Source of the DNA: a bacterium
GTDB lineage: Bacteria; RBG-13-61-14; DATKZS01
Assembly (NCBI GenBank): GCA_963674965.2
Contig: CAXXFL010000001.1
Location: forward strand, 1,472,001 to 1,536,000
Direction: 5' to 3'
Length of the DNA stretch: 64,000 bases
Positions within the stretch are counted from its first letter, which is position 1, and the number at the start of each line of letters is the position of its first letter. The translations under genes were made by a program, and so were the position numbers. The notes below the pieces were generated by a model. It saw only the letters and a program-made list of their open reading frames with translations, had not been told where the DNA came from and did not search any database. This document shows positions 47,640 to 62,430 of this stretch, piece by piece.

Positions 47640-48392
47640 TCACCAGCCCATTTTCGTAAGCCACCGATTGGTGAAGAAGTAAAGAAGACCCGAGGTGACG
47701 GCGTATGCCAGGACCACCAGCCAGAAGCCGGGAAGAACGGCGGCCTCGACGGCGAAAAGCGCGAGGGCCAGGACGGCGATCAATCCGAAGAACCTGTCCT
47801 TTTGTTTTTGAGGAGCCGCGGGCCACTGGTCGGCGTAGACCTCTCCCGACACGGCGTCCACCAGGGCCTTGTGAGCGGAGTTCTGGCAGGTATAGTCAAC
47901 CTCGTACATGGGAAGGTGAAGGAGGGTGGCCGACTGAAACTTGAGGCCCGGAGTATCCAGGAGTATAAGCCCCTCGGCGGCGGCCTCCTCCAAAAGCGCC
48001 TGGGGCTCGACGACCTTAAATGACTCCGTAAGTTCCGCGCTGTAAAGTTTCAACTCTCCGGCGGGCTGGGCTACCTTTCTGAGTCCCTCCAGGGGAGTCA
48101 TGGCGGCGGGCACGACCACCACTTTGCCGCCCGAGGTCTCGAGCTTCCAAAAGGGAAGATACGATATTTTATGGGTCGTTACCTCGACGGGGTCCTTTAT
48201 TTCCATGTAAGAGATTTTGCGCTGGATCACCGGTCCCAAGTCCGAGTCCGGCTTTTGCGCGACCATGTAATAATGCTTGATGGTGCGGTCGGTCTCGACG
48301 TAGAGCGCGGTCTCGCAATAGGGGCACCTTATAAAGTCGGAGTCTTCCTCGATGGGGACCTTGGCCCCGCACTGGGTGCATTTAATATCCAT
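47640..48392 (-). CDS. Zinc-ribbon membrane protein (YdjG-like architecture)
   Basis: CTQCGA...CPYC at the N-terminus, YLPFW and LP.Y internal repeats, VDAVSGEV, two C-terminal TM helices. Confidence 0.7.
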   Translation of the reverse strand: MDIKCTQCGAKVPIEEDSDFIRCPYCETALYVETDRTIKHYYMVAQKPDSDLGPVIQRKISYMEIKDPVEVTTHKISYLPFWKLETSGGKVVVVPAAMTPLEGLRKVAQPAGELKLYSAELTESFKVVEPQALLEEAAAEGLILLDTPGLKFQSATLLHLPMYEVDYTCQNSAHKALVDAVSGEVYADQWPAAPQKQKDRFFGLIAVLALALFAVEAAVLPGFWLVVLAYAVTSGLLYFFTNRWLTKMGW

Positions 48393-48499: not shown

Positions 48500-49693
48500 T
48501 CATTCAGTCTTTTGTCCGCAGTTGGGGCAGAACTTGGCGCCGGGCTCCAATTCGGCCTGGCAGTTTTTGCACTTGGGTTTTTCAAGGAGGTTGAACCCGC
48601 AGTTTCCGCAGAACTTGTTGGTCGAGAGGACGGCGGCCCCGCAGTTGGGGCATTTGAGTTCCTCGGCCATTTTCTCTCCGCAGCTCGGGCAGAACTTGGA
48701 CCCCGCGGGGACGGACCCCTGGCACTTGGGGCACGCGATGGCGGCGACCGCGCCGGCGGCGGCCCCGGACGCTCCCGCGGCGGCCGTTCCCGCGCCCTGG
48801 GTTTGTCCCTGGGCCTGTCCCGGGTTCATCATTCCGCCCATGGCCTGGGCCATCATGCCGGGCATCATCATGCCCATGCCCGCGCCCACGCCTATTCCCA
48901 TGCCCGCGGCGGCGGCCCCGCCTCCGCCTTCTCCCCTGGCCGCGTCCCTCATGCTCTTGGCGGCCTGGAACTGCATGAACTTGTTCATGTCGCCCACGGC
49001 GGCCATGCTCGAGCGCTCGTCGATCATCTTCTGCACTTCCTCGGGAGGGGTGATGGCCTGGATGAAGAAGTCGCGCAGCTCGAGGCCGTACTGGGTGAAG
49101 TCGGGCTCGAGCCTGTCGGTCTTGAGATGGAAGGCCAACTCGTCGTAGCTCTGGGGCAGGTCGAAGACGCTCTCGACCCTCTCGCCCAGCACGTCGTTGA
49201 ACCTGGCCACGATCACGTCCTTTAGATAACGCTGGACGTCGTCGGTCTCGTACCTGCCCATGCCGCCTACCAGGTTGTTTATGACCAGGAGGGGTTCCTT
49301 GACCTGCATGGTGAAGTTGCCGAAGGCCCGGAGCCTGACGATGCCAAGTTCCTTGTCGCGGAAAGCCACGGGCTCCTTGGTCCCCCACTTGAGGTTGGTG
49401 AAGACCTTCATGTTCACGAACATGACCTCGGTGCGGAAGGGAGAATTGGGACCGAAGCCGGCTATTTTCTTCAGGAGTCCGGTTAAAATCGGAAGGTTCT
49501 GGGTGCTCAGGGTATGGCGGCCGGGCCCCAGGACGTCCATGCCCTTGCCGTCGCGGAAGAACACGGCCATCTGGTTCTCGCGCACGATGAGCTGGCTGCC
49601 GTACTTGGTTTCCGCCGATCCCTGCTCGGGCACGCGATGTACCAGCTCCTCGCCGGTGGGGTCCACGTATTCGATTATATCAAGCATTGCCAT
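48500..49693 (-). CDS. SPFH/band-7 protein (YdjI-like) with Gly/Met linker and three C-terminal zinc ribbons
   Basis: GSQLIVRENQ.AVF, PGRHTL.T.NLP, SPF..EV, KWGT..P, VRLRAFG; CPKC/FCPSC, CPNC/FCGNC, CKNC/FCPNC. Confidence 0.88.
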   Translation of the reverse strand: MAMLDIIEYVDPTGEELVHRVPEQGSAETKYGSQLIVRENQMAVFFRDGKGMDVLGPGRHTLSTQNLPILTGLLKKIAGFGPNSPFRTEVMFVNMKVFTNLKWGTKEPVAFRDKELGIVRLRAFGNFTMQVKEPLLVINNLVGGMGRYETDDVQRYLKDVIVARFNDVLGERVESVFDLPQSYDELAFHLKTDRLEPDFTQYGLELRDFFIQAITPPEEVQKMIDERSSMAAVGDMNKFMQFQAAKSMRDAARGEGGGGAAAAGMGIGVGAGMGMMMPGMMAQAMGGMMNPGQAQGQTQGAGTAAAGASGAAAGAVAAIACPKCQGSVPAGSKFCPSCGEKMAEELKCPNCGAAVLSTNKFCGNCGFNLLEKPKCKNCQAELEPGAKFCPNCGQKTE

Positions 49694-49721: not shown

Positions 49722-50246
49722 TCAAACCGCCTTGGGCAGGACCGTGGAGGAATATTGCTCGCGCTGGCCCAGCTTCTCGTCGAACTCGGCAAGGGCGTCC
49801 TCGAAGTCCATCAGGGCCTCCTTGACGCTTATGGAGGGGTCGCTGATGGACTCCTCCGCCAGGCGCTGAAGCTTCTCGACGTCGTCGAAGAGTTTCTCGT
49901 CGAAGTCAAGGAGGGCCATCAGGTCGCGCTCGGTCACCTCCTGGGGATCGAAAAGTCCCTGGTACCCTCTCGAGTCGTACTTGATGGTGTCGCGGACCTT
50001 GCGAACGCGCTTGCAGACGCGGTCGAGCCGGTCGAGTCCCTGGAGGGCGGCCATGCCCTTTGCCTGGCTTCTGGCGTCCGAGGCCTTGGCCACGGTCTTG
50101 GCCAGCTTGTCTACCCTCTTTACCAGCTCGTCCCGAATCTCCTTGTCCGCGTCGCGCAGGTTTTCCCTGGCGAGGTAGGTCTTAAGGCCGGGGACCTTGT
50201 TCTGGGCCCAGCTTTCGAGCCTCTTTGGCAGGCTTGCATAAGTCAT
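49722..50246 (-). CDS. Hypothetical alpha-helical protein, first gene of the SPFH operon
   Basis: 174-aa ORF with AAGGAGG RBS; KVPG...Y..RE..R.ADK.IR, GY.GLFD, L..LL.FD; coiled-coil-like composition. Confidence 0.72.
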   Translation of the reverse strand: MTYASLPKRLESWAQNKVPGLKTYLARENLRDADKEIRDELVKRVDKLAKTVAKASDARSQAKGMAALQGLDRLDRVCKRVRKVRDTIKYDSRGYQGLFDPQEVTERDLMALLDFDEKLFDDVEKLQRLAEESISDPSISVKEALMDFEDALAEFDEKLGQREQYSSTVLPKAV

Positions 50247-50314: not shown

Positions 50315-50968
50315 TCATTTTTCCTTGAAACCGGGTTTGACGTACTCGCCGCCGGACTGAATATATTTATAGGCCGCCTCCATGTTGACGGGCAGGTTGT
50401 CGCGCGTGAGTTTTTTCATGACGAACTCGGGTATGATCGAGGTCACCTCGACCCTGGTGCCGTACCTGGCCAGGGTGCGCTTGTCGTCAAGCTTGAAAAG
50501 TTGCCAGTATCCGTCCACCTGTTTCATGTCGTTGTCGAAATCGGGGTCCAGATGCCACCACAGCTTGTAGTTTTCCTCGTCGTAGTGATGCATGATCCGG
50601 TAGTCGATATTCAGGATCAACTTGACGTGGAAGTCCACCTTGTCGCCTTTGTCGTCTCTCTGGACAAGCTCGCAACTATCCAGGTCCGGCAGGTATCGAT
50701 GCTGTTTCTCCGTGGCCTTGAAAAGTTTCCAGGTCTTCTCGAGCGGCTGATCGAATATCATGGCCGCCCGGATGAAGCGCTTCTGGTCCGCCCCCTCGCT
50801 TTTGTCCTCGTCCAGGATGACTATCTCGCCGGCCTTGACCTTTTTAACCTGGTCCTCGGTAAGGCCCTCCCAGGCCTGGGGAGAGTCCGCCGAAGGCGGG
50901 TCCGCCCAGGCGCAAAGACCAACGGCCAGGACCAACGCGACAAATCCGAACCTTATAAGTTTAATCAT
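50315..50968 (-). CDS. Exported START/SRPBCC (polyketide cyclase-like) protein
   Basis: Signal peptide; IF.QP.E..W......YLP, G.WQL..LD...TL..Y pattern; AAGGAGG RBS. Confidence 0.7.
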   Translation of the reverse strand: MIKLIRFGFVALVLAVGLCAWADPPSADSPQAWEGLTEDQVKKVKAGEIVILDEDKSEGADQKRFIRAAMIFDQPLEKTWKLFKATEKQHRYLPDLDSCELVQRDDKGDKVDFHVKLILNIDYRIMHHYDEENYKLWWHLDPDFDNDMKQVDGYWQLFKLDDKRTLARYGTRVEVTSIIPEFVMKKLTRDNLPVNMEAAYKYIQSGGEYVKPGFKEK

Positions 50969-51266: not shown

Positions 51267-51295
51267 TTGACACGGCCGTTATTAGGGCCTATATT
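51267..51295 (+). promoter_or_regulatory. sigma70 promoter of the activase-plsB operon
   Basis: TTGACA-17 bp-TATATT, about 150 bp upstream of the ATG. Confidence 0.6.
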
Positions 51296-51443
51296 CGTAA
51301 AAACTAGACTGGGGTGTCATTTTTTGAGGAACGGGTTTTCGCGCGTCATCATCCGCGGGGCTGGGGTCATCGAGTCTTTCCCGCCCATCGATATTTTTCG
51401 GCGCCCTCCTCTCCCCGGATAAATTGGTTTAAGGAGGCGGCAA

Positions 51444-54400
51444 ATGACTGTAAAAAACGGGCGGTCCCTCGGCATAGACGCGGGCAGCCTTTACGTAAAG
51501 GTGGCGGCGCTGGACGCTTCCGGCGCTCTTTTGGACTCGGCTTACGCGGCCCACAAGGGGCGTCCCATCAAGGCGCTTAAGGAAATCCTTCCCGGGTTCC
51601 TTGACGGCGTCGCTTTCAAGGTAGGCCTGACGGGGGCCCTTATCGATCCCATTTGCCGCCAGTTGGGCCTGGACTCTATCGACCTGGTCCGGGCCGAGGT
51701 GGCGGCGGTCAAGGCCAACGTCCCGGAGGTAAGGAATATTATCGACGTGGGCGGCGGCAGCGTGACGCTTATCCGTCTCAACGAGAAGGGCGAGTTCGAG
51801 AGCATGGAGCGCAACTCCCTTTGCGCCGCGGGCACGGGCTCCTTTCTGGACGAGCAGGCGGCGCGCCTTGGCGTCAGCTACGAGGAGATCGAGTCCTTCG
51901 GCGCGGTGGACGAGCCGCCCAGCATCGCCACCAGGTGCGCGGTCTTCGCCAAGTCGGACCTCATCCACCACCAGCAGGCGGGCCGGAGCAAGGTCGAGTG
52001 CTGGTCCGGTCTTTGCCGGGGCATGGTAAGCACTTTCCTCGGCACCCTGCTCAAGGGCCGTCCCCTAAAGGGCCTGACGGTCATGGTGGGCGGCGTGGCC
52101 CAGAACCCTGAGATCATGAGGTGGCTCAAAGATATTTACGGCGACCGGATCACGACCTTTCCCGAGGCCCGGATGGCGGGGGCCATCGGCGCCGCCATGA
52201 TGGCCGCGGATGAATTGTCGCCCGAGAAGCTGGCGGCCCTGGTACCGGGCGAGGGCAGGGGAGAGAGCCGGGCCCTGGCCACTCGTCCTCCCCTCGAGCT
52301 CAAGAAGTCCAGGTACCCCTCCTGGGAGGTCGAGGAAAGCTACACCGACTCCCTGGCCAACGAGGTCCGCGTGACCAGACTGCCGGCCGGGCCGGCGGTC
52401 GAGTGCTACATGGGCATCGACGTGGGCAGCACCAGCACCAAGCTTTTAGTCTCCGATCTCGAGGGCGACGTTCTGTGCGACGTTTATCGCAAGACGGGCG
52501 GAGACCCCATCGGGGCCACGCGGGACCTTTTCATCGCGCTCATGGACCTGGAGAAGAAGCGCGGGCTCAAGTTCGAGGTCAAGGGCTGCGTGACCACTGG
52601 CTCGGGCCGCAAGATGGTGGGTCTCGTGATCGGGGCCGACGACGTGATCAACGAGATATCCTGTCACGTGAAGGGCGCCATGCACGTGGACCCGGAGATC
52701 GACACCATATTCGAGATAGGGGGCCAGGACTCGAAGTACATGCGCACGCAAAAGGGCAAGATCAAGGACGCGGCCATGAACTACGTTTGCGCGGCGGGCA
52801 CGGGCTCTTTCGTGGAGGAGGTCGGGCGCAAGCTTGGCTACGAGGTCCACAAGATCGGGGAAGCCGTGATGGGCATAGCCCCGCCCCACACCTCGGACCG
52901 ATGCACGGTCTTCATGGACCAGGACGTGAGGCGTCTTCTCCGGGCCGGTTACACCAAGGACGAGGCCCTGGCGGCGGTGCTTTACTCGGTGGTCCAGAAC
53001 TATTTGAACAAGGTCGTGGCCAGGCGCTATTACTCGAGGGAAAAGATTTTCTTCCAGGGCGCCACGGCCCGCAACCCCGGACTGGTGGCCGCCTTCGAGA
53101 ACCTCCTTGGCGTCGAGATGGTGGTCTCGCCCTACGCCCACGTCATGGGCTCGTGGGGAGCGGCCCTTCTCGCCAAGGACATGATGGAGAAGGCCGGCAA
53201 GTCCTCCACCTTCAGGGGACTTAACCTGGCCGACAGAAAGATCGAGCTTTACGCCGAGCGCTGCGACCAGTGCGTGAACAACTGCGAAATAACCTTCGCC
53301 AGGATCGAGGGCGTCGAGGAGACCCCCTCCTGGGGATACATGTGCGGCCGCGAGCCGGGCGAGAAGAAGAAGAACGTGAGGGAGTTCCGGCTTTTCGCCG
53401 AGCGGGAGAAGATGCTCCGGGACATTGGGAAGGTCAAAGCCAAGGAGGGCGCGCCCACGGTGGTTATACCTCGGGCCCTCTCGATGTTCACCTATCTTCC
53501 CACCTGGCGGCGTTTCCTGGGCGAGCTGGGACTCAAGGTGGTCGTCTCGCCCGTGACCAACGCCCTGATCAAGAAGCTGGGCACGGAGATTTCGGGCGGC
53601 GACTTCTGCTTTCCCGTAAAGGCGGCCCTGGGCCACGGTCGCTGGGCCTTCCAGGAGGTGGAGGCCGACTGGGTGTTCATTCCCCACACCATCAGCAACG
53701 AGCCTAACGAGCACACCAGCAACTCGCTGTTCTGCCCCTACGTTCAGTCTTATCCTTCCCTGGTCAAGACGGCCCTCGAGCTTCACGGCGTGGACGCGAG
53801 CAAGCTCCTGGCCCCGGTGATGGACCTGCGCTGGAAGGACAAGAAGACGGTCTCCGAGCTTTACGAGAACGTGGGCAAGAGATTGGGCAAGACCCAAAAG
53901 GAGGTCAAGAAGGCCTGGGAGGCCGCCCTCGAGAGCCAGCGCGAGTACGACCGGCGCTGCCGGGAGGAGGGGAAAAAGGCCCTGGCCGAGATCGAGAAGG
54001 AGGATAAGCCCGCGGTCTTGATCCTGGGCCGTCCCTACAACACCTGCGACGTGGGAATCAACCTGGGCCTGGCCCGCAAGATAGCCGAGCGGGGCCACAC
54101 GGTCATCCCTCTGGACTTCGTGCCCTTCGATCCCTCCGAGCTGGGCCAGGAGTTCTCGAACATCTACTGGAACTACCCGCAGCGAATCATCCACGCGACC
54201 AAGACGCTTCGCGGCAACAAGCGGATTTACCCGGTGTACTTCACCAACTTCAACTGCGGTCCCGACAGCTTCATCGAGACCTACGCCGAGCGCATCTCGG
54301 GCGACAAGCCCCTGCTGGTGCTGGGCCTGGACGAGCACGACGCCGACGCGGGCTACATCACCAGGATCGAGGCCTTCCTCGACGTGGTGGAGAACACGAC

Positions 54401-55691
54401 CGGTTACGACGATTTTCCCGGCGTTTACTTCCCCAAGGACTCGGACGAGGAATTCAAAAAGCGCGTCATCTGGATACCCCGCATGCACCATGTGGGGGCC
54501 GAGTTCGGCGCGGCCGCCTTCCGGGCCATGGGCTACGACGCCCGGGTACTGCCCCTCGAGACGGACGAGAGCTTCGAGGTGGGAAGGGGACTTACCTCGG
54601 GCAACGAGTGTCTGCCCACGGTGGTGACCATCGGCGCCATGGTGGCCAAGCTAAGGGAGATGGACGCCAAACCCGGCGAACACGCCTTTTTCATGGCCAC
54701 GGCCGACGGCCCCTGCCGTTTCGGCCAGTACGCTCTAAAGCATCGGATGATCCTTAACGACCTGGGCTACAAGGACGTGCCCATCATGTCTCCCTCGGCC
54801 CTCAATTCCTACCAGGGGCTTCCCGAGGCCCTGCGCCGGCAGGTGTGGCATCTTTTCGTGGCCTCTGATATATTGATGAAGCTAAGGTGCAAGGTGGCCC
54901 CTTACGAGGTTAACGCGGGCGAGACGGCCCGGGTCCTCGAGGAGGAGGTCGTCCGTCTGGCGGGGGTAATCGAGAAGAATGGCAATTTCGACGACGAGTG
55001 GGTAAAGTCTCTTAAGAGGATAAACTTGATCGAGCAAACCGGCGGGCCGCGAAAGCCGCTGGTGGGGATAGTCGGCGAGATTTACGTCCGGTGCAACTCC
55101 TTTACCAACGACAGGGTCATCGAGTCGATCGAGAGCTATGGGGGCGAGGCCTGGCTCACGCCCTTGTCGGAGTGGTTCATTTACACCGCTCATATGCAGA
55201 ACTGGAGGGCCAAGGAAGACCTTCGAGGCATCGTTTTCCGCGGCCAGAGCCTGATCAAGAACCGCTTCATCCTGGGGGTGGAGCATGGGCTTTACAAGAA
55301 GGCGGCGGCCTTCGTTGACGACCGTAAAGAGCCGCCCATTGAGGAGGTCCTGGAGGCCGGCAAGAAATACCTTCCCCTCAACTTCGAGGGCGAGGCGATC
55401 CTGACGGTGGGAAGGACGGTCAAGTTCATAGAAGACGGCGCGAAGATGGTAGTGAACTGCGCTCCCTTCGGATGTATGCCGGGAACCATTTCCGGCGCGC
55501 TGTTCCAGGAGATACAGAACAGAACGGGAGTTCCCGTTGTCAGTATGTTTTATGACGGTGAAGGCGACCTCAACAGCCTGCTCGGAATATACCTGGCACA
55601 GCTTGGCGACAGGGGAGACGAGGGTATAAGAGGGGGAACCCAACATGGCGGGTTCAAAGAAAAAGTCAAAGAGGGGGAAGCTCTTAGGTAA
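51444..55691 (+). CDS. Four-domain CoA-activase/reductase (2 BcrAD/BadFG ATPase + 2 DUF2229/dehydratase-like domains); PlsA/Ger-like
   Basis: GIDAGS/IDVGG/CAAGTGSF/RCAVFAKSD and GIDVGSTSTK/EIGGQDSK/CAAGTGSF/RCTVF; CDQCVNNC; CFPVK, CPY, GRPY, FNCGPD, DEH..AG..TR.EAF; ECLP, GPCRFGQY, VGEIY, PFGCMP. Confidence 0.88.
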   Translation: MTVKNGRSLGIDAGSLYVKVAALDASGALLDSAYAAHKGRPIKALKEILPGFLDGVAFKVGLTGALIDPICRQLGLDSIDLVRAEVAAVKANVPEVRNIIDVGGGSVTLIRLNEKGEFESMERNSLCAAGTGSFLDEQAARLGVSYEEIESFGAVDEPPSIATRCAVFAKSDLIHHQQAGRSKVECWSGLCRGMVSTFLGTLLKGRPLKGLTVMVGGVAQNPEIMRWLKDIYGDRITTFPEARMAGAIGAAMMAADELSPEKLAALVPGEGRGESRALATRPPLELKKSRYPSWEVEESYTDSLANEVRVTRLPAGPAVECYMGIDVGSTSTKLLVSDLEGDVLCDVYRKTGGDPIGATRDLFIALMDLEKKRGLKFEVKGCVTTGSGRKMVGLVIGADDVINEISCHVKGAMHVDPEIDTIFEIGGQDSKYMRTQKGKIKDAAMNYVCAAGTGSFVEEVGRKLGYEVHKIGEAVMGIAPPHTSDRCTVFMDQDVRRLLRAGYTKDEALAAVLYSVVQNYLNKVVARRYYSREKIFFQGATARNPGLVAAFENLLGVEMVVSPYAHVMGSWGAALLAKDMMEKAGKSSTFRGLNLADRKIELYAERCDQCVNNCEITFARIEGVEETPSWGYMCGREPGEKKKNVREFRLFAEREKMLRDIGKVKAKEGAPTVVIPRALSMFTYLPTWRRFLGELGLKVVVSPVTNALIKKLGTEISGGDFCFPVKAALGHGRWAFQEVEADWVFIPHTISNEPNEHTSNSLFCPYVQSYPSLVKTALELHGVDASKLLAPVMDLRWKDKKTVSELYENVGKRLGKTQKEVKKAWEAALESQREYDRRCREEGKKALAEIEKEDKPAVLILGRPYNTCDVGINLGLARKIAERGHTVIPLDFVPFDPSELGQEFSNIYWNYPQRIIHATKTLRGNKRIYPVYFTNFNCGPDSFIETYAERISGDKPLLVLGLDEHDADAGYITRIEAFLDVVENTTGYDDFPGVYFPKDSDEEFKKRVIWIPRMHHVGAEFGAAAFRAMGYDARVLPLETDESFEVGRGLTSGNECLPTVVTIGAMVAKLREMDAKPGEHAFFMATADGPCRFGQYALKHRMILNDLGYKDVPIMSPSALNSYQGLPEALRRQVWHLFVASDILMKLRCKVAPYEVNAGETARVLEEEVVRLAGVIEKNGNFDDEWVKSLKRINLIEQTGGPRKPLVGIVGEIYVRCNSFTNDRVIESIESYGGEAWLTPLSEWFIYTAHMQNWRAKEDLRGIVFRGQSLIKNRFILGVEHGLYKKAAAFVDDRKEPPIEEVLEAGKKYLPLNFEGEAILTVGRTVKFIEDGAKMVVNCAPFGCMPGTISGALFQEIQNRTGVPVVSMFYDGEGDLNSLLGIYLAQLGDRGDEGIRGGTQHGGFKEKVKEGEALR

Positions 55692-58341
55692 CTTCCTTAT
55701 TAATAAAATACTGGGAGGCTCGCTCGATCATTACGGAAACGAGATCTCCGACGTTCACGGAATCGTATCCGGCGGGCTTTTCAAGAAGTTTTTCGACAAG
55801 ATAGCCATCGAGCCGGAAAAGGTCGAGAAGCTAAGATACTTCGCGGAGCGGGGAAGGCTCATCTACGCCCTTCCCCGCCGGAGTCCTCTGGACTTCTTTT
55901 TCCTTAACATACGACTGCGTTTTTCGGGCGTTCCCGTTCCCGAGATAGCCTATAACACGCCGGTATATCGGTTCCAGCCTCTCCGCAAAGTATTCAAGGT
56001 CGGCCTGTCCCGTTTCCTTCAGCTTATTAACTTCGGCCGGTTCTCCGATCCTTATTTAAACAAGTATTACCTGAAGAGATATCGCGACGGCGCCGGGTTC
56101 GTGCTCAATCTCGAGGACCCCGCGAGCTTCACCGCTCGCCTAATAAATCCGACGCGCGATCCCATCTATCATCTTGTCAAGCTTTATAGAAAGCACGGTG
56201 AGACGGTTATAATAGTTCCCATTTTCCCCGTTTTCGGCAAGAGCCCGACCCGAGCGAAAAGAAGACTCTGGGATATATTTATCGGGCCCAAGGACCGGCC
56301 CGGAAGGCTGCGGAAGATAGTCCATTATATTCATTATTACAACGAGGCCTTCATCGAGGTGGGCGATCCGGTCACCATCGACCGCTTCCTGGCCCGCAAG
56401 GACCAGGAGGGCCTGACCGACGAGCGGATTGCCTTTAATATCAGAAAGGAATTATGGGACCACTCCCAGCGGGAGCAGAAGGTTATTAGGGGACCGGAAT
56501 TAAGGCCCCGCACGCAAATAATGGAGTCAGTGCTTCGGGACCCGGAAATCCTGCGAGTCATGCGGCAGGAGGCCAAAAAGCGCGACAAGCCCTTTCGTTC
56601 CATCCGCAAGGAGGCGGCCAAGTACATGGACGAGATCGCCGCCAATTACTCCCATACCACCATCGAGTTCCTCGACTGGGCCCTGGCCTGGGTGTGGAAC
56701 AATTTATTCGACGGGGTCCATGTCGACGAAAAAGGACTGGCCCGCTTAAAGGAAGCCGCCAAGCGTTACCCGGTGATATACGTGCCCAGCCACAAGAGTC
56801 ACCTGGATTACCTGATTTTATCCTGGGTCCTTTATCACGCGAACATGGTCCCGCCTCACATCGTGGCGGGAGTCAACCTGGACACGTGGCCCATTGGGTT
56901 TATTTTCCGCACGGCGGGCGCTTTCTTTATACGCAGGTCCTTCCGGGACAACGCCCTTTACGGCGCGGTGTTCACCAAGTACGTCGAGGTACTGATAAAG
57001 GGCGGCTATAACATCGAGTTTTTCATCGAGGGGGGCAGGAGCAGGACGGGTCGACTTCTCATCCCGACCATGGGCATGGTCAAGTATATCATCAAGGCCT
57101 ACGAGCACGAGGCGGCCAAGGATATAATGTTCGTGCCCCTTTATATCGGCTACGACCAGATATTCGAGGAAGGAGAATATCTTGAGGAAATCAGGGGAGT
57201 TAAGAACCCTAAAAGCAATCTGTTCGAGATGATCCGTAACGCCAACCTGATTACGAAGCGCTACGGCCGGATTCACATCCGCTTTGCCGAGCCCATCAGC
57301 CTCCGATATCACCTCGAGTGCATGAGCGACCGGCTGGAGGGCAAGCTCGAGGAGAACGAGGGCCTGGTCATTACCGAGCTGGCCGAGGACATTATCCAGG
57401 GAATTAACAGGAACCAGGTGGTCACGCCCTTCTCTCTCATGGCGGCCGCCCTTTTAGCCTCGCCGGCCAAGGCCATCAGCCGGGAGGAACTGCTTAACGC
57501 TCTTGCCCTTTATTTCCAGTACCTGGCCGACGCGGACGCGAAGTTCGCCGTCACGCTCGAGAATTTCACCAAGGCCATGGACGACGTCATCGGCTATTAT
57601 CGGGAAAGGAAACTCATCGAGATCGAGGGAGAAGACGAGGCCGACGATTCCTTCGAGCCCATCTACACGCTGCCGGAGGAAAAACGGTTATCCCTTAACA
57701 TGTACTCGAACATGATCCTGCACCATTTCCTGCCCATGTGTTTCGTGACCATGAGCCTTCTTTCCGCCGATTACGGAACATGCGACGAGCAGAAGCTAAA
57801 GTGGGACTATGGCTTTTTAAAAGACCTGTTCAGCTTCGAGTTCGTTCAAGACGAGCGTTTCACGGACAAGGAAAAGATCGAGCGTTGCGTCAGGTTCCTC
57901 CAGAACGGAAGGCTTCTCGAGGCTTTCACCGAGGACGGCCACGGCCACTACAGAGTTACTTCCAAGGGCAGGGAGGAGATGGTGTATTTCGCGTCCATGC
58001 TCACCAACTTCCTCGAGGCATATGGAGTTGTGCTTAACGCGTCGGATATATTGGAGAAAAAGGCCATGACCGAGAAGGAGTTCCTGGCCAAGCTGAGAAG
58101 GACCGGAAACAGGCTTTACAAGCAGGGACAAGTGCTTCGGCGTGAGGCCATATCCCAGCTTCTTTTCAAGAACGCGATTAAGTTCTCCATTAATAATGGA
58201 ATTTTAACCAAAGTCCCCAACGACGGAAAGCCGGAGCTATTGACCAAGGGCGGAAAAGAATCCGATGACGCCAAGAACCAGTTGTTAACGCACATCTCGA
58301 AGTTTATTCGGGTCGAGAAATATCATTACCTGGAGAAATGA
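55645..58341 (+). CDS. plsB: Glycerol-3-phosphate O-acyltransferase
   Basis: HKSHLD (Hx4D), AG.NL, GAFFIRR.F, FFIEGGRSRTG, Y..E..G; about 900 aa with a degenerate N-terminal acyltransferase-like domain. Confidence 0.9.
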   Translation: MAGSKKKSKRGKLLGNFLINKILGGSLDHYGNEISDVHGIVSGGLFKKFFDKIAIEPEKVEKLRYFAERGRLIYALPRRSPLDFFFLNIRLRFSGVPVPEIAYNTPVYRFQPLRKVFKVGLSRFLQLINFGRFSDPYLNKYYLKRYRDGAGFVLNLEDPASFTARLINPTRDPIYHLVKLYRKHGETVIIVPIFPVFGKSPTRAKRRLWDIFIGPKDRPGRLRKIVHYIHYYNEAFIEVGDPVTIDRFLARKDQEGLTDERIAFNIRKELWDHSQREQKVIRGPELRPRTQIMESVLRDPEILRVMRQEAKKRDKPFRSIRKEAAKYMDEIAANYSHTTIEFLDWALAWVWNNLFDGVHVDEKGLARLKEAAKRYPVIYVPSHKSHLDYLILSWVLYHANMVPPHIVAGVNLDTWPIGFIFRTAGAFFIRRSFRDNALYGAVFTKYVEVLIKGGYNIEFFIEGGRSRTGRLLIPTMGMVKYIIKAYEHEAAKDIMFVPLYIGYDQIFEEGEYLEEIRGVKNPKSNLFEMIRNANLITKRYGRIHIRFAEPISLRYHLECMSDRLEGKLEENEGLVITELAEDIIQGINRNQVVTPFSLMAAALLASPAKAISREELLNALALYFQYLADADAKFAVTLENFTKAMDDVIGYYRERKLIEIEGEDEADDSFEPIYTLPEEKRLSLNMYSNMILHHFLPMCFVTMSLLSADYGTCDEQKLKWDYGFLKDLFSFEFVQDERFTDKEKIERCVRFLQNGRLLEAFTEDGHGHYRVTSKGREEMVYFASMLTNFLEAYGVVLNASDILEKKAMTEKEFLAKLRRTGNRLYKQGQVLRREAISQLLFKNAIKFSINNGILTKVPNDGKPELLTKGGKESDDAKNQLLTHISKFIRVEKYHYLEK

Positions 58342-58421: not shown

Positions 58422-58856
58422 ATGAGCGGACACGTACATATACCATGCGGTTCTTGCGGCGCGGTAAACAGGGTGATCCGGGAGAAACTGGACAATTCGC
58501 CAAGGTGCGCTAAATGTAAAACGGGAATCAAACTGGACGCTCCCTTTTCCGTAAACTCATCACAATTCGATAAGGTCGTCAAGGAATCGGACATGCCCGT
58601 GCTGGTGGATTTCTGGGCGCCATGGTGCGGACCTTGCCGCATGATGCACCCGGTGCTCGAGGAAATCGCCAGAAAATGGGCGGGAAAGGTTATGGTGGTC
58701 AAGTTGAACACGGACGAGGCCCAGGACGTGGCCGGGAGGTTCGGTATTCAGGGTATTCCCACCCTCATTTATTTAGCCAATGGCCGGGAGATCGAACGCA
58801 AGGTCGGGGCCGTCAGCGCCGAGGCCGTGGACGCTATGATCGGACGGGCAATATAA
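58422..58856 (+). CDS. trxC: Thioredoxin 2 with N-terminal zinc finger
   Basis: CGSCGAVNRV...CAKC plus DFWAPWCGPC and GIPT. Confidence 0.93.
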   Translation: MSGHVHIPCGSCGAVNRVIREKLDNSPRCAKCKTGIKLDAPFSVNSSQFDKVVKESDMPVLVDFWAPWCGPCRMMHPVLEEIARKWAGKVMVVKLNTDEAQDVAGRFGIQGIPTLIYLANGREIERKVGAVSAEAVDAMIGRAI

Positions 58857-59094: not shown

Positions 59095-62000
59095 ATGAAT
59101 AGAGATGGCGGGAAAGTGAAGTCCGAATCGGACGACTTCCTTTCAATTAAAAAAAATTCCAGCAACCATGACTCCTCCCCCAAGGCAACGGACGGAGCCC
59201 GCGAGCTTGCCCCTGAAGTCTACCGCGCCTTGTTCGACTCCGCCGAGGACGGCGTTCTCTTGATGAAACGAGACGTGGTAATCGACTGCAATCCCAGACT
59301 TCTAGAGATATACAAACTGACCAGGGAAGAGGCCATCGGCAGCACTCCTCTCGATTATTCTCCCATTCTTCAGATTGACGGAAGTCTATCCGAAGAATTG
59401 TCTCAGGCAAGAATCGACGCGGCCCTGGCCGGAGAAACCCAGCTTTTCGAGTGGATAAACGTCAACGGCCTGGGCGAGCCCCTTTGGGTTGAGGTCATGC
59501 TTAAGCGATTGGAAGCGGACGAGGATCAATTGGTTTTCGCCGTAATCCGCGACGTCACGAAAAGGAAATTCGAGGAGGAAAAGGAAAGAGCAAGAGCGCG
59601 CGCCGTCCGCGAGCGTCACGCGGTAATAGTTGAACTGGGAAAGGACGAGCGTCTTATCCAGGGGGACCTAGTGGGTTTTGCCAAGCGTCTTTGCGAGGCC
59701 GCCGCCGAGGCCATCGAGGTCGACAGGGTCGGGCTGTGGACGCTAAAGGACGAGGGAAGGGTGCTCGAGTGCATGAACATGTACGAGCGCTCTCCCAAAA
59801 AACACTCCAGCGGCCAGTCAATTGACGCCGGGGAATACCCGAGCTATTTTCAAGCGCTCGAGACGGGACGGGCCATACAGGCCGACAATGCTCCTCTCGA
59901 CCCCCGATTTTGCGAGCTTAAGGATTCTTACCTTATTCCTAACGATATAAAGTCGATGATGGACGCGCCCATACGAATATCGGGAAAAGTCGTGGGCGTC
60001 GTGTGTCACGAGAGCGTGGGCAAACCGATAAAATGGCATGGAGACGAGATCGCCTTCGCCGGAGAGATAGCCGATCTGGCCGCCATCGCCATGATCAATG
60101 AGGACCGGATGAGGGCTGAGGAGGCCCTGCGCGCCAGCGAGGAAAAATACCGGCTTTTATTCGACGCCTCTCCCGAGTCCATTACCCTCGTGGGGCTTGA
60201 CGGCCGGATAATGGACATGAATCCCGCCAACGACGACCTGTTGGGCTATAACCAGTCCAATACGGTGGGCAGACCCTTCATGGATCTGGAAAGCATCGAT
60301 CCCGCGGAACTGCCTCGGTTTATCGACGTTTTCCAGAGGCTGGTAAAAGGAGAAAAAGTCGAGCCCATCGAGCTGAAAACGGTGGACGCCAAGGGCAATC
60401 CCCGGTGGATCGAGTCCTATCCCAGTCCCCTGAAAAGAGGAGGCGAGGTATACGCCATCCTGGTCGTCTCTCGTGAGGTTACCGAAAGAAGGAACGCCGA
60501 GGAAGCCATCCGGCGCTCGGAAATCGAATACCGCGCAACCATCGACGCCATGCGAGACATGATCCACGTGGTGGACCAGGACTTGAAGATCATTCTGGCC
60601 AACGCGTCGATTCTGAGGGCCTTGAGCGAATTCGGCTACTCCACCGACGTGGAGGGCAAGACGCCCTTCGACCTTTTCCCTTTTCTTGACGACACGGTTC
60701 GCCGGGAATATGAAGAGGTCTTCAGGGATGGTAAAGCGCTTGTAACCGCGGAGTCCTTCATCATCGGGGGAAAGGAAAAATTCAGCGAGACGATTAAAAT
60801 TCCGATCCATGACGGATTTATGGTTAAGAGAGTTTTGACCGTTATTCGCGACGTGACGGAAAAAAAGATGGCCGAGAAGGCCCTTGTACGGAGCGAGGCC
60901 AAGTACCGGGAGTTGGTGGAAAACGCCAACAGCATCATCCTCAGGATGGACCCGGAGGGCAAGGTGACTTTTTTCAACGAGTTCGCCCAGCGCTTTTTCG
61001 GCTTCTCCGAGGAGGAAATCCTGGGCAGGAACGTGGTGGGAACGATCGTGCCCGAGACCGACGTGACCGGCCGGGACCTTCGGATTATGGTCCAGGACAT
61101 CGGCCGCAACACGGACCTATATCGAACTAACGAAAACGAGAACGTCAAGCGCGACGGGGAGAGGGTGTGGGTCGCCTGGACGAACAAGGCCGTTTGCGAC
61201 GCCGATGGGAATATCGTCGAGATACTTTGCATAGGAAACGATATCACCTCGAGAAAGCGCGCGGAAGAGGAAAGAGTGAGGCTCGAGCATCAGTTGCAGC
61301 AGGCGCGAAAACTTCAGGCAGTGGGACAGCTCGCCGGAGGCGTGGCCCATGACTTCAATAACCTGCTCACCCCGATCCTCGGTTACTCGGAGATGATCCT
61401 GGCCAACCTCAAAAATGACGACGCGGCCGCCGAGGGTATAAAGGAGATCAGGGAGGCCGCCTTTCGCGCCCGCGACCTGACCCGGCAGCTTCTGGCCGTG
61501 AGCCGCAAGCAGGTCATTCAGATGAAGGTCATTAATCTTTCCAGGGTCATTACCGGCATGGAAAAGATGCTGACCAGGACCATAAGGGAAAACGTCGAGA
61601 TTAAAATTGAAATCGAGACGGACCTGAAAAACGTGAAAGCGGACCTATCTCAGATCGAGCAAATTATTCTGAACCTCGCCGTTAACGCCCAGGACTCGAT
61701 GCCCGACGGAGGGACCATGTGGATCAAGGCCGGCAACGATTTCATTTCAAGGGATAGGCGGGAGGAGTTCCAGGACCTTAGGCCGGGTAACTACGCCGTA
61801 ATTTCAGTGATCGACACGGGCGTGGGCATGGATGAGGAGACCCGGGAGAGGGTCTTCGAGCCCTTCTTCACCACCAAGGACATGGGCAAGGGCACCGGCC
61901 TGGGCCTGGCCACCGTTTACGGGGTGGTCAAACAGCATCAGGGCCACGCCTTCGTCGCCAGCGAGCCGGGAAAAGGATCGACCTTTAAAATATATTTGCC

Positions 62001-62430
62001 CGCCGTGGACCAGGAGGCCCATTCGGGAATGGAAGAAGGCTCGCCGTCCGCTGAGAGGGGAAGCGCGGAAAGGATTATGGTGGTGGAGGACAATGAGCAG
62101 GTCCGGGAACTGACAAGGGAAATACTCGAGCATTACGGATACGAGGTCATCTGCGCGGCGGACGCCGAGGACTGCATGAAAAAGCTGGGCCGGGAACGGC
62201 GAGGAATCGACGTTCTTCTTACCGACGTTATTATGCCCAGGATGAGCGGAAGAGTTCTTTATGAAAAGCTTTCCCCCCAGATGCCCGGCCTTAAAGTGAT
62301 ATATATGTCGGGATACGCCGACAATGAACTGGCCCATCACGGCGTGGCCGATGGGAAGACGAACTTCATCCAGAAACCCTTTTCAGTGGACGATCTTATT
62401 AACATGGTTCGGGAGACGTTGAAGGAATGA
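59095..62430 (+). CDS. Cytoplasmic hybrid histidine kinase (PAS, GAF, 3 PAS, HisKA, HATPase, REC)
   Basis: No TM; PAS/GAF domains, [34 protein letters not shown], receiver VVED...DVIMP...QKPF. Confidence 0.93.

Follow-up and report, generated by a model that had tools for sequence, protein, structure and literature searches.

The window analysed here is a 64,000-nucleotide (64-kb) stretch of a bacterial genome assembly (contig CAXXFL010000001.1), and all coordinates of the locus are given as positions within it. Two overlapping genes on the forward strand lie between positions 51444 and 58341. The first (51444..55691, +) runs from an ATG start codon to a TAA stop codon at 55689-55691 and encodes a protein of 1415 residues, P0001, whose sequence points to a single-chain ester reductase of the PlsA/Ger family; we refer to the reductase gene as ger. 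The second (55645..58341, +) is an open frame that also starts with ATG and encodes P0002, a PlsB-family glycerol-3-phosphate acyltransferase of 898 residues. The coordinates of the open reading frames (ORFs) give an overlap of 47 bp (55645..55691, +) in which both frames are open, in agreement with an original prediction made for this locus from the DNA letters. The overlap encodes the C-terminal tail of P0001 (residues 1391-1415), which is modelled with low confidence in the predicted structure (predicted local distance difference test score, pLDDT, under 50). A canonical Shine-Dalgarno sequence, AAGGAGG (51429-51435, +), is located 8 nt 5' of the ger start codon, and a Shine-Dalgarno-like GAGGGGGA lies just 5' of the plsB ATG, within the last codons of P0001. 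The single sigma-70-like promoter that had been predicted upstream is present at 51267..51295 (+), 149 nt 5' of the start codon, as a match at 11 of 12 positions (TTGACA-17-TATATT). It is a consensus match only, with 9 such sites in 9 kb versus 3.4 +/- 1.8 in shuffled sequences. The genes 5' of ger are on the opposite strand. We infer that ger and plsB are co-transcribed.

The N-terminal part of P0001 consists of two activase domains. Domain 1 (residues ~8-255; 51465..52208, +) was delimited with Pfam, NCBIfam, and alignments to homologues and to the structure 1hux, and domain 2 (residues 323-579; 52410..53180, +) with Pfam, NCBIfam, and structure-sequence and homologue alignments. The Pfam family BcrAD_BadFG (PF01869) matches the protein in two stretches (E = 4.3e-60), and P0001 reaches 234.7 bits with the NCBIfam model CoA_E_activ (TIGR00241, acyl-CoA dehydratase activase), whose cut-off is 125.4. 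Domain 1 can be aligned with 1hux and 4eht, the activators of 2-hydroxyglutaryl-CoA and 2-hydroxyisocaproyl-CoA dehydratase, and domain 2 to 9gai_D, 4eht and 1hux; by sequence, the two activase halves match HgdC, HadI and MbdQ with E-values from 2e-33 to 4e-28. In HgdC (1hux), the two cysteines that lie in the motifs CAAGTG and C(T/A)VFA, which we take to be the ligands of its [4Fe-4S] cluster, align with Cys127 and Cys165 of domain 1. These two residues and their counterparts in domain 2, Cys449 and Cys487, are invariant across 14 homologues. The arrangement would fit a fused pseudo-dimer that holds one bridging [4Fe-4S] cluster.

The C-terminal part contains ten cysteines that are invariant over 45 homologues, with sequence identity down to 24%. 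Four of them form a CxxCxxxC...C motif (Cys607, Cys610, Cys614 and Cys634; 53262..53345, +), probably an extra metal or Fe-S site. Cys722, Cys764 and Cys938 belong to catalytic domain 1 (53433..54398, +), defined by Pfam and the predicted structure, and Cys1056, Cys1091 and Cys1344 to catalytic domain 2 (54459..55607, +), defined by the predicted structure; both are predicted to adopt a HadC/BzdO/DCCP-like fold. DUF2229 (PF09989) covers residues 672-893 of the first (E = 1.5e-55), and Pfam detects no second DUF2229 in the C-terminal half, even at E<=10. The predicted structures have pLDDT values of 88.9 for residues 600-1415 and 89.8 for residues 995-1415 folded alone with AlphaFold2 (AF2). 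A fold search with residues 664-985 returned HadC (3o3n_B; Z = 14.8, root mean square deviation (r.m.s.d.) = 4.0, 270 residues aligned), BzdO (Z = 14.3) and the double-cubane cluster protein DCCP (Z = 13.8). For residues ~1006-1388 the matches were HadC (3o3m_B; Z = 12.6, r.m.s.d. = 4.4, 278 residues aligned), MbdN/O (9g87_B; Z = 12.5), BzdO (Z = 12.4) and DCCP (Z = 11.6). The matches of catalytic domain 2 span 270-287 residues, unrelated rows reach Z-scores of at most 9.8, and the Foldseek E-values range from 1.8e-6 to 1e-4. The predicted fold thus supports a second reduction/dehydration domain (Red2) in P0001. Because the predicted structures give two catalytic-subunit folds of the 2-hydroxyacyl-CoA dehydratase/benzoyl-CoA reductase (HAD/BCR) type, the original prediction of two activation and two reduction/dehydration domains is confirmed: Pfam and NCBIfam account for the activases and DUF2229, and the fold search for the remaining domain.

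The PlsA/Ger family of lipid ester reductases has been known since 2021-22. Its sequence and predicted domains identify P0001 as a single-chain PlsA/PlsR-Ger-type lipid ester reductase, and hence as a new member of an already known family. The architecture corresponds to both published descriptions, namely the BBD string, a pair of activation domains plus one reduction domain, that is common to all producers of saturated alkyl ethers (PMC13159169), and the Act1-Act2-Red1-Red2 layout (PMC12838417). The prediction that this is the PlsA/PlsR-Ger architecture therefore stands, as does the remark that such proteins are usually annotated only as CoA activases, the public names being 'CoA-substrate-specific enzyme activase' and 'acyl-CoA dehydratase activase'. 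According to PMC13159169, Ger of Thermotoga maritima and of Desulfatibacillum alkenivorans yields 1-O-alkylglycerols in Escherichia coli under anoxic conditions only, and a 2026 paper describes Ger and PlsA as currently inseparable by primary sequence (PMC13274423). Whether P0001 would make an alkyl or a vinyl ether cannot be told from its sequence. We rejected an assignment of P0001 as a class I benzoyl-CoA reductase or 2-hydroxyacyl-CoA dehydratase proper, given its fused modules and its scores with the NCBIfam equivalogs for BzdQ, BcrA and BcrD, which remain under the cut-offs (TIGR03192, 151.8 versus 380.2; TIGR02261, 118.2 versus 312.85; TIGR02259, 105.2 versus 578).

P0002 contains an Acyltransferase domain (PF01553; residues 373-501, E = 8.9e-25; 56761-57147, +) and a GPAT_C domain (PF19277; residues 512-856, E = 1.8e-63; 57178-58212, +), both assigned with Pfam. 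Together with the overlap, these domains bear out the prediction of a tightly coupled plsB-family gene downstream of ger. Its best NCBIfam families are PlsB equivalogs (NF003441, 478.7 bits versus a cut-off of 610; TIGR03703, 468.6 versus 618.5); since both scores are under the cut-offs, we file P0002 as a member of the PlsB family without calling it an E. coli PlsB equivalog. Residues 180-781 align with the solved bacterial glycerol-3-phosphate acyltransferase (GPAT) 9vuq (E = 6.1e-83), and the alignment includes the HX4D, GAFFIRR and FFIEGGRSRTGR blocks. VPSHKSHLDYL, GAFFIRRSF and FFIEGGRSRTGRLL of P0002 align with the corresponding blocks in chain 9vuq_E. HX4D is presumably the catalytic block and the others the glycerol-phosphate-binding blocks, and P0002 looks catalytically competent on this basis. 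Its first ~170 residues are unmatched by the PlsB models, and the Pfam list of the protein database gives PF27464 for the protein. Desulfobacca, Desulfacinum and Syntrophobacteria have homologues of ~900 residues that are 34-37% identical to it. Elsewhere, the window genome also encodes PlsY and five further PF01553 acyltransferases.

To describe how the two genes are distributed, we surveyed the 13 species-level genomes of the class to which the window belongs, calling PlsB-like genes at E<=1e-30 and reductases at E<=1e-50. PlsB-like genes and PlsY are present in 13 of 13 genomes and the reductase in 11; at this threshold none was detected in G009 and G010 (93% and 87% complete, respectively), both of which have PlsB. 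The pair is adjacent in six of the 11 genomes with a reductase, interrupted by a contig end in one and apart in four. In the window genome (G000) and G001-G003, which make up family f1, plsB follows ger and overlaps it. In G004 the reductase is cut by a contig end and plsB opens another contig, so that adjacency is indeterminate. In G011 and G012, which represent f5, a sister family in another order, ger precedes plsB with gaps of 14-16 bp, and a gene for a PlsC-type 1-acylglycerol-3-phosphate acyltransferase of 281-285 residues lies directly 5' of ger in the same orientation, giving the order plsC-ger-plsB. These PlsC-type genes (L105:14609-15466 and L106:6938-7783, both on the minus strand) were identified with TIGR00530 (110 and 108.9 bits; cut-off 102.95). 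The reductase-plsB pair is the only part of the window locus that is syntenic in G001-G003: when 13 flanking window genes were tested against the loci of these relatives, no comparable match was obtained (one was weak, with 25% identity).

A second sample comprised 151 genomes from the phylum to which a Desulfobaccales bin belongs. Of these, 49 have PlsB-like genes (E<=1e-60), 113 have reductase-like genes (E<=1e-100) and 38 have both. The order plsB-ger was found in two of the 38: G078, with a gap of 14 bp, and G117, with a contig break inside plsB. The reductases of these two genomes are the closest to P0001 in the sample, at 54-55% identity. In G172 and G087 the two genes share a contig at distances of 46 kb and 261 kb, and in the remaining genomes that have both they are on separate contigs.

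Reductase phylogenies were calculated with FastTree and with IQ-TREE (posterior mean site frequency model, PMSF). Both trees contain a clade of 15 rows formed by the f1-f4 reductases, those of f5 together with G078 and G117, and two unlinked pairs. Family f1 is nested inside the f1-f4 group (support 97-99) and f5 is joined to G078/G117 (98-99), and the adjacency state changes at least two times on the tree. In the PlsB phylogeny, f1-f4 group together as a single clade (100), consistent with vertical descent, while the f5 plsB is on a separate long branch and that of G078 groups with PlsBs of its own phylum, a placement that carries a long-branch warning. None of the three linked plsB lineages is sister to another on this tree, and the linked genes occur in three orders: ger-plsB overlapping, plsC-ger-plsB, and plsB-ger. 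Because adjacency shifts on the reductase tree and the linked plsB lineages are not sisters, the phylogenies indicate that a reductase gene came to lie beside a resident plsB on at least two independent occasions. By a rough estimate, which was not computed, a locus would have about one chance in 1000, or less, of lying next to one given gene by accident. Recurrence among the roughly 200 loci covered therefore makes selection for the reductase-plsB linkage likely, and the repeated linkage independently supports a glycerolipid role for the clade of P0001. The link to plsB, which had been called a strong functional clue, retains this value in that it goes beyond chance and appears in three gene orders, but it is restricted to certain lineages and not a general property of the family.

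Taken together, the reading that we favour, and consider on balance the probable one, is a translationally coupled membrane-lipid operon of two genes, a PlsA/Ger-family reductase and the PlsB of its lineage, in which the linkage serves co-regulation. The two fused HgdC-type ATPase domains of P0001 would share one [4Fe-4S] cluster and use ATP to drive a low-potential electron into the two fused HAD/BCR-type catalytic domains, and these may convert the acyl ester at the sn-1 position of a glycerolipid into an ether, alkyl or alk-1-enyl, by reduction under anoxic conditions. P0002 would install the sn-1 acyl chain as the PlsB-type glycerol-3-phosphate acyltransferase of the lineage. Linkage would then most likely provide a co-regulated, stoichiometric and membrane-sited output of two enzymes, the one setting the sn-1 chain and the reductase that later acts on it. 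Co-expression of two membrane-lipid enzymes acting on the same sn-1 chain is the most economical explanation. The suggestion that plsB supplies a dedicated substrate was not upheld, however: PlsB is a general gene of this lineage and not an accessory of the reductase, because every genome of the class carries it, including the two without a reductase, and every one has PlsY as well.

Several findings weigh against this reading. No PlsB homologue was found near the reductase in any of 80 named loci from many phyla (tblastn, E<=1e-5, up to 10 kb of flank), 51 of which have at least 2.7 kb of downstream flank. The same result was obtained for 80 metagenome loci (at least 1.5 kb downstream in 60 and upstream in 66); these loci came from a scan with an alignment as query, P0001 alone as query having matched no relative. 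Even within the class, the two genes lie apart in 4 of 11 genomes (G005-G008, families f2-f4), and the plsB-ger order is rare among the second-phylum genomes that hold both genes. The claim of a conserved adjacency thus has two sides: the link reappears in three different arrangements and with plsB genes that are not sisters, but is missing from four class genomes and from all 160 other loci. As for the reductase itself, residues 600-1415 have no match to PF06050 (HGD-D) at E<=10, although this absence is not a family-defining failure because PMC13159169 describes only BBD as conserved among producers. In reductase trees of 55 and 25 homologues, which contain no experimentally validated PlsA or Ger among their rows, P0001 falls into a clade of 29 of the 55 rows with homologues from Myxococcota, Spirochaetota and Syntrophales; we know of no characterised member in this clade. 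The other 26 rows, with 33-38% identity to P0001, include homologues from Desulfobacteraceae, Clostridia, Nitrospirota and Planctomycetota. The window genome also encodes a paralogue with BBD architecture (G000:C3:548860-553467; L114:7861-12468, +), a protein of 1535 residues with two activase domains and DUF2229 that is 32% identical to residues 7-980 of P0001. It is flanked by genes for a WD40-like protein, an acyl-CoA dehydrogenase and a CGGC-domain protein, and its position beside the acyl-CoA dehydrogenase gene implies that the family need not consist of lipid enzymes throughout. D. alkenivorans likewise has a second copy, Ger2 (SHK01260), reported to be inactive on expression (PMC11150832).

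Two alternatives concern whether P0001 acts on glycerolipids at all, and whether its position beside plsB means anything. If P0001 were instead a radical reductase or dehydratase that is driven by ATP and acts on a different ester or thioester, a clade with no characterised member that we could identify, the best solved fold relatives, which act on CoA thioesters, and the paralogue beside an acyl-CoA dehydrogenase gene would all be in keeping with it. Yet the neighbours to which the reductase is repeatedly linked are glycerolipid acyltransferases, with no other conserved neighbour, the papers considered so far tie the fused BBD architecture to ether-lipid formation only, and the scores for the benzoyl-CoA reductase equivalogs are far below their cut-offs; we consider this reading very improbable. 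It is also quite unlikely, if slightly less so, that an ether-lipid reductase merely landed by plsB through a lineage-specific rearrangement and that the adjacency is without functional meaning. The absence of the link from most lineages examined would suit such an origin, and so would the step in base composition at the gene junction, where GC content and GC at third codon positions (GC3) are 0.62 and 0.84 in the reductase gene versus 0.53 and 0.72 in plsB. We give this difference no weight, and did not read it as a sign of recent transfer, because both genes are within the normal spread of the genome (85th and 11th percentiles of 3-kb windows). What argues against an accident is that joining took place at least twice independently, in three gene orders and with non-sister plsB genes, and that the pair was kept while its flanks were reshuffled; the rough chance estimate given above predicts well below one case in about 200 loci.

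A closer question is at which stage the ether bond would form. The original prediction had the operon couple sn-1 acylation to reduction. A further alternative is early, substrate-coupled etherification: the reductase would act de novo on the PlsB product, 1-acyl-glycerol-3-phosphate (lysophosphatidic acid, LPA), or on phosphatidic acid (PA) made by PlsC, and PlsB and the reductase may form a physical complex. The tight coupling of the genes, by a 47-bp overlap or gaps of 14-16 bp, the position of the f5 reductase gene between those of the sn-2 and sn-1 acyltransferases, and a linkage that arose at least twice would all be expected under this scheme. It also has an aerobic precedent in Myxococcus xanthus, where AGPS and a GNPAT-type enzyme share an operon and the acyltransferase product is the AGPS substrate (PMC13012113). 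The published evidence on anaerobic pathways nevertheless argues the other way. In D. alkenivorans, reduction is proposed to follow the formation of phosphatidylethanolamine (PE) and phosphatidylglycerol (PG) (PMC11150832); in clostridia, plasmalogens derive from finished diacyl phospholipids, and PA, CDP-diacylglycerol (CDP-DAG) and phosphatidylserine (PS) are without alkenyl species (PMC9702350); and both Ger and PlsA are active in E. coli without their own acyltransferase (PMC13159169, PMC12838417). PlsB is also present in G009 and G010, where no reductase was found. No fused PlsB-reductase protein was found, which is weak evidence: a search with P0002 residues 170-860 for longer proteins gave one match among 4655 candidates, a eukaryotic multidomain protein without activase domains. 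Overall, the original interpretation is supported in part. We regard early etherification as unlikely, although better placed than the two preceding alternatives. That the clade of P0001 has ether formation wired into de novo phosphatidic-acid synthesis, through hand-over of LPA or PA and perhaps within a membrane complex, appears equally doubtful. If true, such a hand-over would be an anaerobic counterpart of the aerobic GNPAT-AGPS coupling and would differ from the late phospholipid remodelling inferred for clostridia and D. alkenivorans. The co-regulatory operon remains the reading that we prefer.

Other features surround the pair. A gene for a Trx2-type thioredoxin with an N-terminal zinc ribbon (58422..58856, +) lies 80 bp 3' of plsB and is possibly co-transcribed with the pair; it was not found beside the pair in the relatives G001-G003. 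It is followed by a gene for a GAF/PAS hybrid histidine kinase (59095-62430, +). The divergent upstream cluster contains a gene for an SPFH/band-7 protein with C-terminal double zinc ribbons (48500-49693, -) and three ORFs without a Pfam family (47640-48392, 49722-50246 and 50315-50968). Clustering of 446 ORFs that flank the reductase in the 80 named loci gave PAS histidine kinases as the largest cluster, with 8 loci, followed by clusters of 4-6 loci each for acylphosphatase, radical SAM proteins with a helix-turn-helix (HTH) domain, 2-hydroxyacid dehydrogenase, OAD beta, aconitase, Crp and ferredoxin; no cluster represents a lipid gene. The PAS-type hybrid kinases, found at L050:4861-7380 and seven other loci, are thus the commonest neighbour (8/80), which may reflect only how abundant such kinases are. 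A radical SAM gene with a C-terminal HTH is located directly 5' of the reductase in 5 of the 80 loci (L064:7574-8527, +, and four others). Elsewhere in the window genome, an rve integrase gene lies near a contig end, close to the BBD paralogue, and three stand-alone activase-like genes of the BcrAD_BadFG type are clustered at G000:C5:764084-769168 (E = 4.7e-32 to 6.4e-25 versus P0001); the latter may belong to a separate system of the benzoyl-CoA reductase or dehydratase type.

Bacterial ether lipids blur the 'lipid divide' between archaea and bacteria and underlie the palaeoclimate proxies built on brGDGTs (branched glycerol dialkyl glycerol tetraethers). A call for 'a broader set of enzymes' is made in PMC11150832. 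Going by the main texts, a plsB or plsC genomic context of Ger or PlsA appears to be unreported; supplementary tables may bear on this point. The words 'plsB' and 'acyltransferase' are absent from the text of the Science Advances paper on Ger (PMC13159169), 'acyltransferase' from that of the 2026 Applied and Environmental Microbiology paper (PMC13274423), and 'plsB' from that of a sponge-symbiont preprint. A literature search for plsB, ether lipid and ger in combination gave no match, and the co-mention of plsB and plsA was due to a strain name, 'PlsBs'. The only new element is thus the operon link to PlsB, which is restricted to certain lineages but has evolved repeatedly, and which in one family extends to PlsC. 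The locus extends the PlsA/Ger family to an uncultured lineage known solely from metagenome bins, and the repeated operon of ger with the gene for an sn-1 acyltransferase, once also with that for an sn-2 acyltransferase, offers a testable pair for the stage at which the ether bond forms. If the linkage is only regulatory, P0001 would be an ordinary new member of the family whose genomic context confirms the lipid role.

Among known systems, P0001 resembles Ger (T. maritima Tmari_0479; D. alkenivorans SHJ90043), by published description, in its single chain of ~1400 residues and BBD architecture, and also in its occurrence in anaerobes. It differs in that the domain strings published for Ger, BBDHDDH in T. 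maritima and BBDHDHDH, hold PF06050 segments, which were not detected in P0001, and in its placement in a separate clade from a Desulfobacteraceae homologue. With PlsA/PlsR (CPE1194-1195 of Clostridium perfringens; the single-gene PlsA of Enterococcus faecalis (EF1327), Lactococcus cremoris and Bifidobacterium longum) it shares the Act1-Act2-Red1-Red2 layout and conserved cysteines that would fit [4Fe-4S] clusters, and the E. faecalis plsA gene, listed at 4,248 bp in PMC12838417, has the same length as the gene of P0001. The lineage of P0001, however, is uncultured and has no relation to Bacillota or Actinomycetota. Each of its catalytic halves matches the fold of HadBC with HadI, of BzdNOPQ/MbdONPQ and of DCCP (Z = 11.6-14.8), but P0001 has all four modules in one chain, and its context, in contrast to that of the 2-hydroxyacyl-CoA dehydratases and benzoyl-CoA reductases, consists of glycerolipid acyltransferases and not of CoA-ester metabolism. 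P0002 has kept the Acyltransferase and GPAT_C domains and the catalytic blocks of E. coli-type PlsB and of the GPAT 9vuq, yet scores under both equivalog cut-offs and coexists with PlsY throughout the class. The nearest parallel to the gene pair is the M. xanthus operon MXAN_1676-1675-1674, in which an ether-forming AGPS gene is combined with a FAR-GNPAT sn-1 acyltransferase (PMC13012113). AGPS is an unrelated flavoenzyme in a pathway that uses dihydroxyacetone phosphate (DHAP) and a fatty alcohol, and the acyltransferase product is known there to be the substrate of the ether-forming enzyme, a relation that for P0001 and P0002 is only hypothetical.

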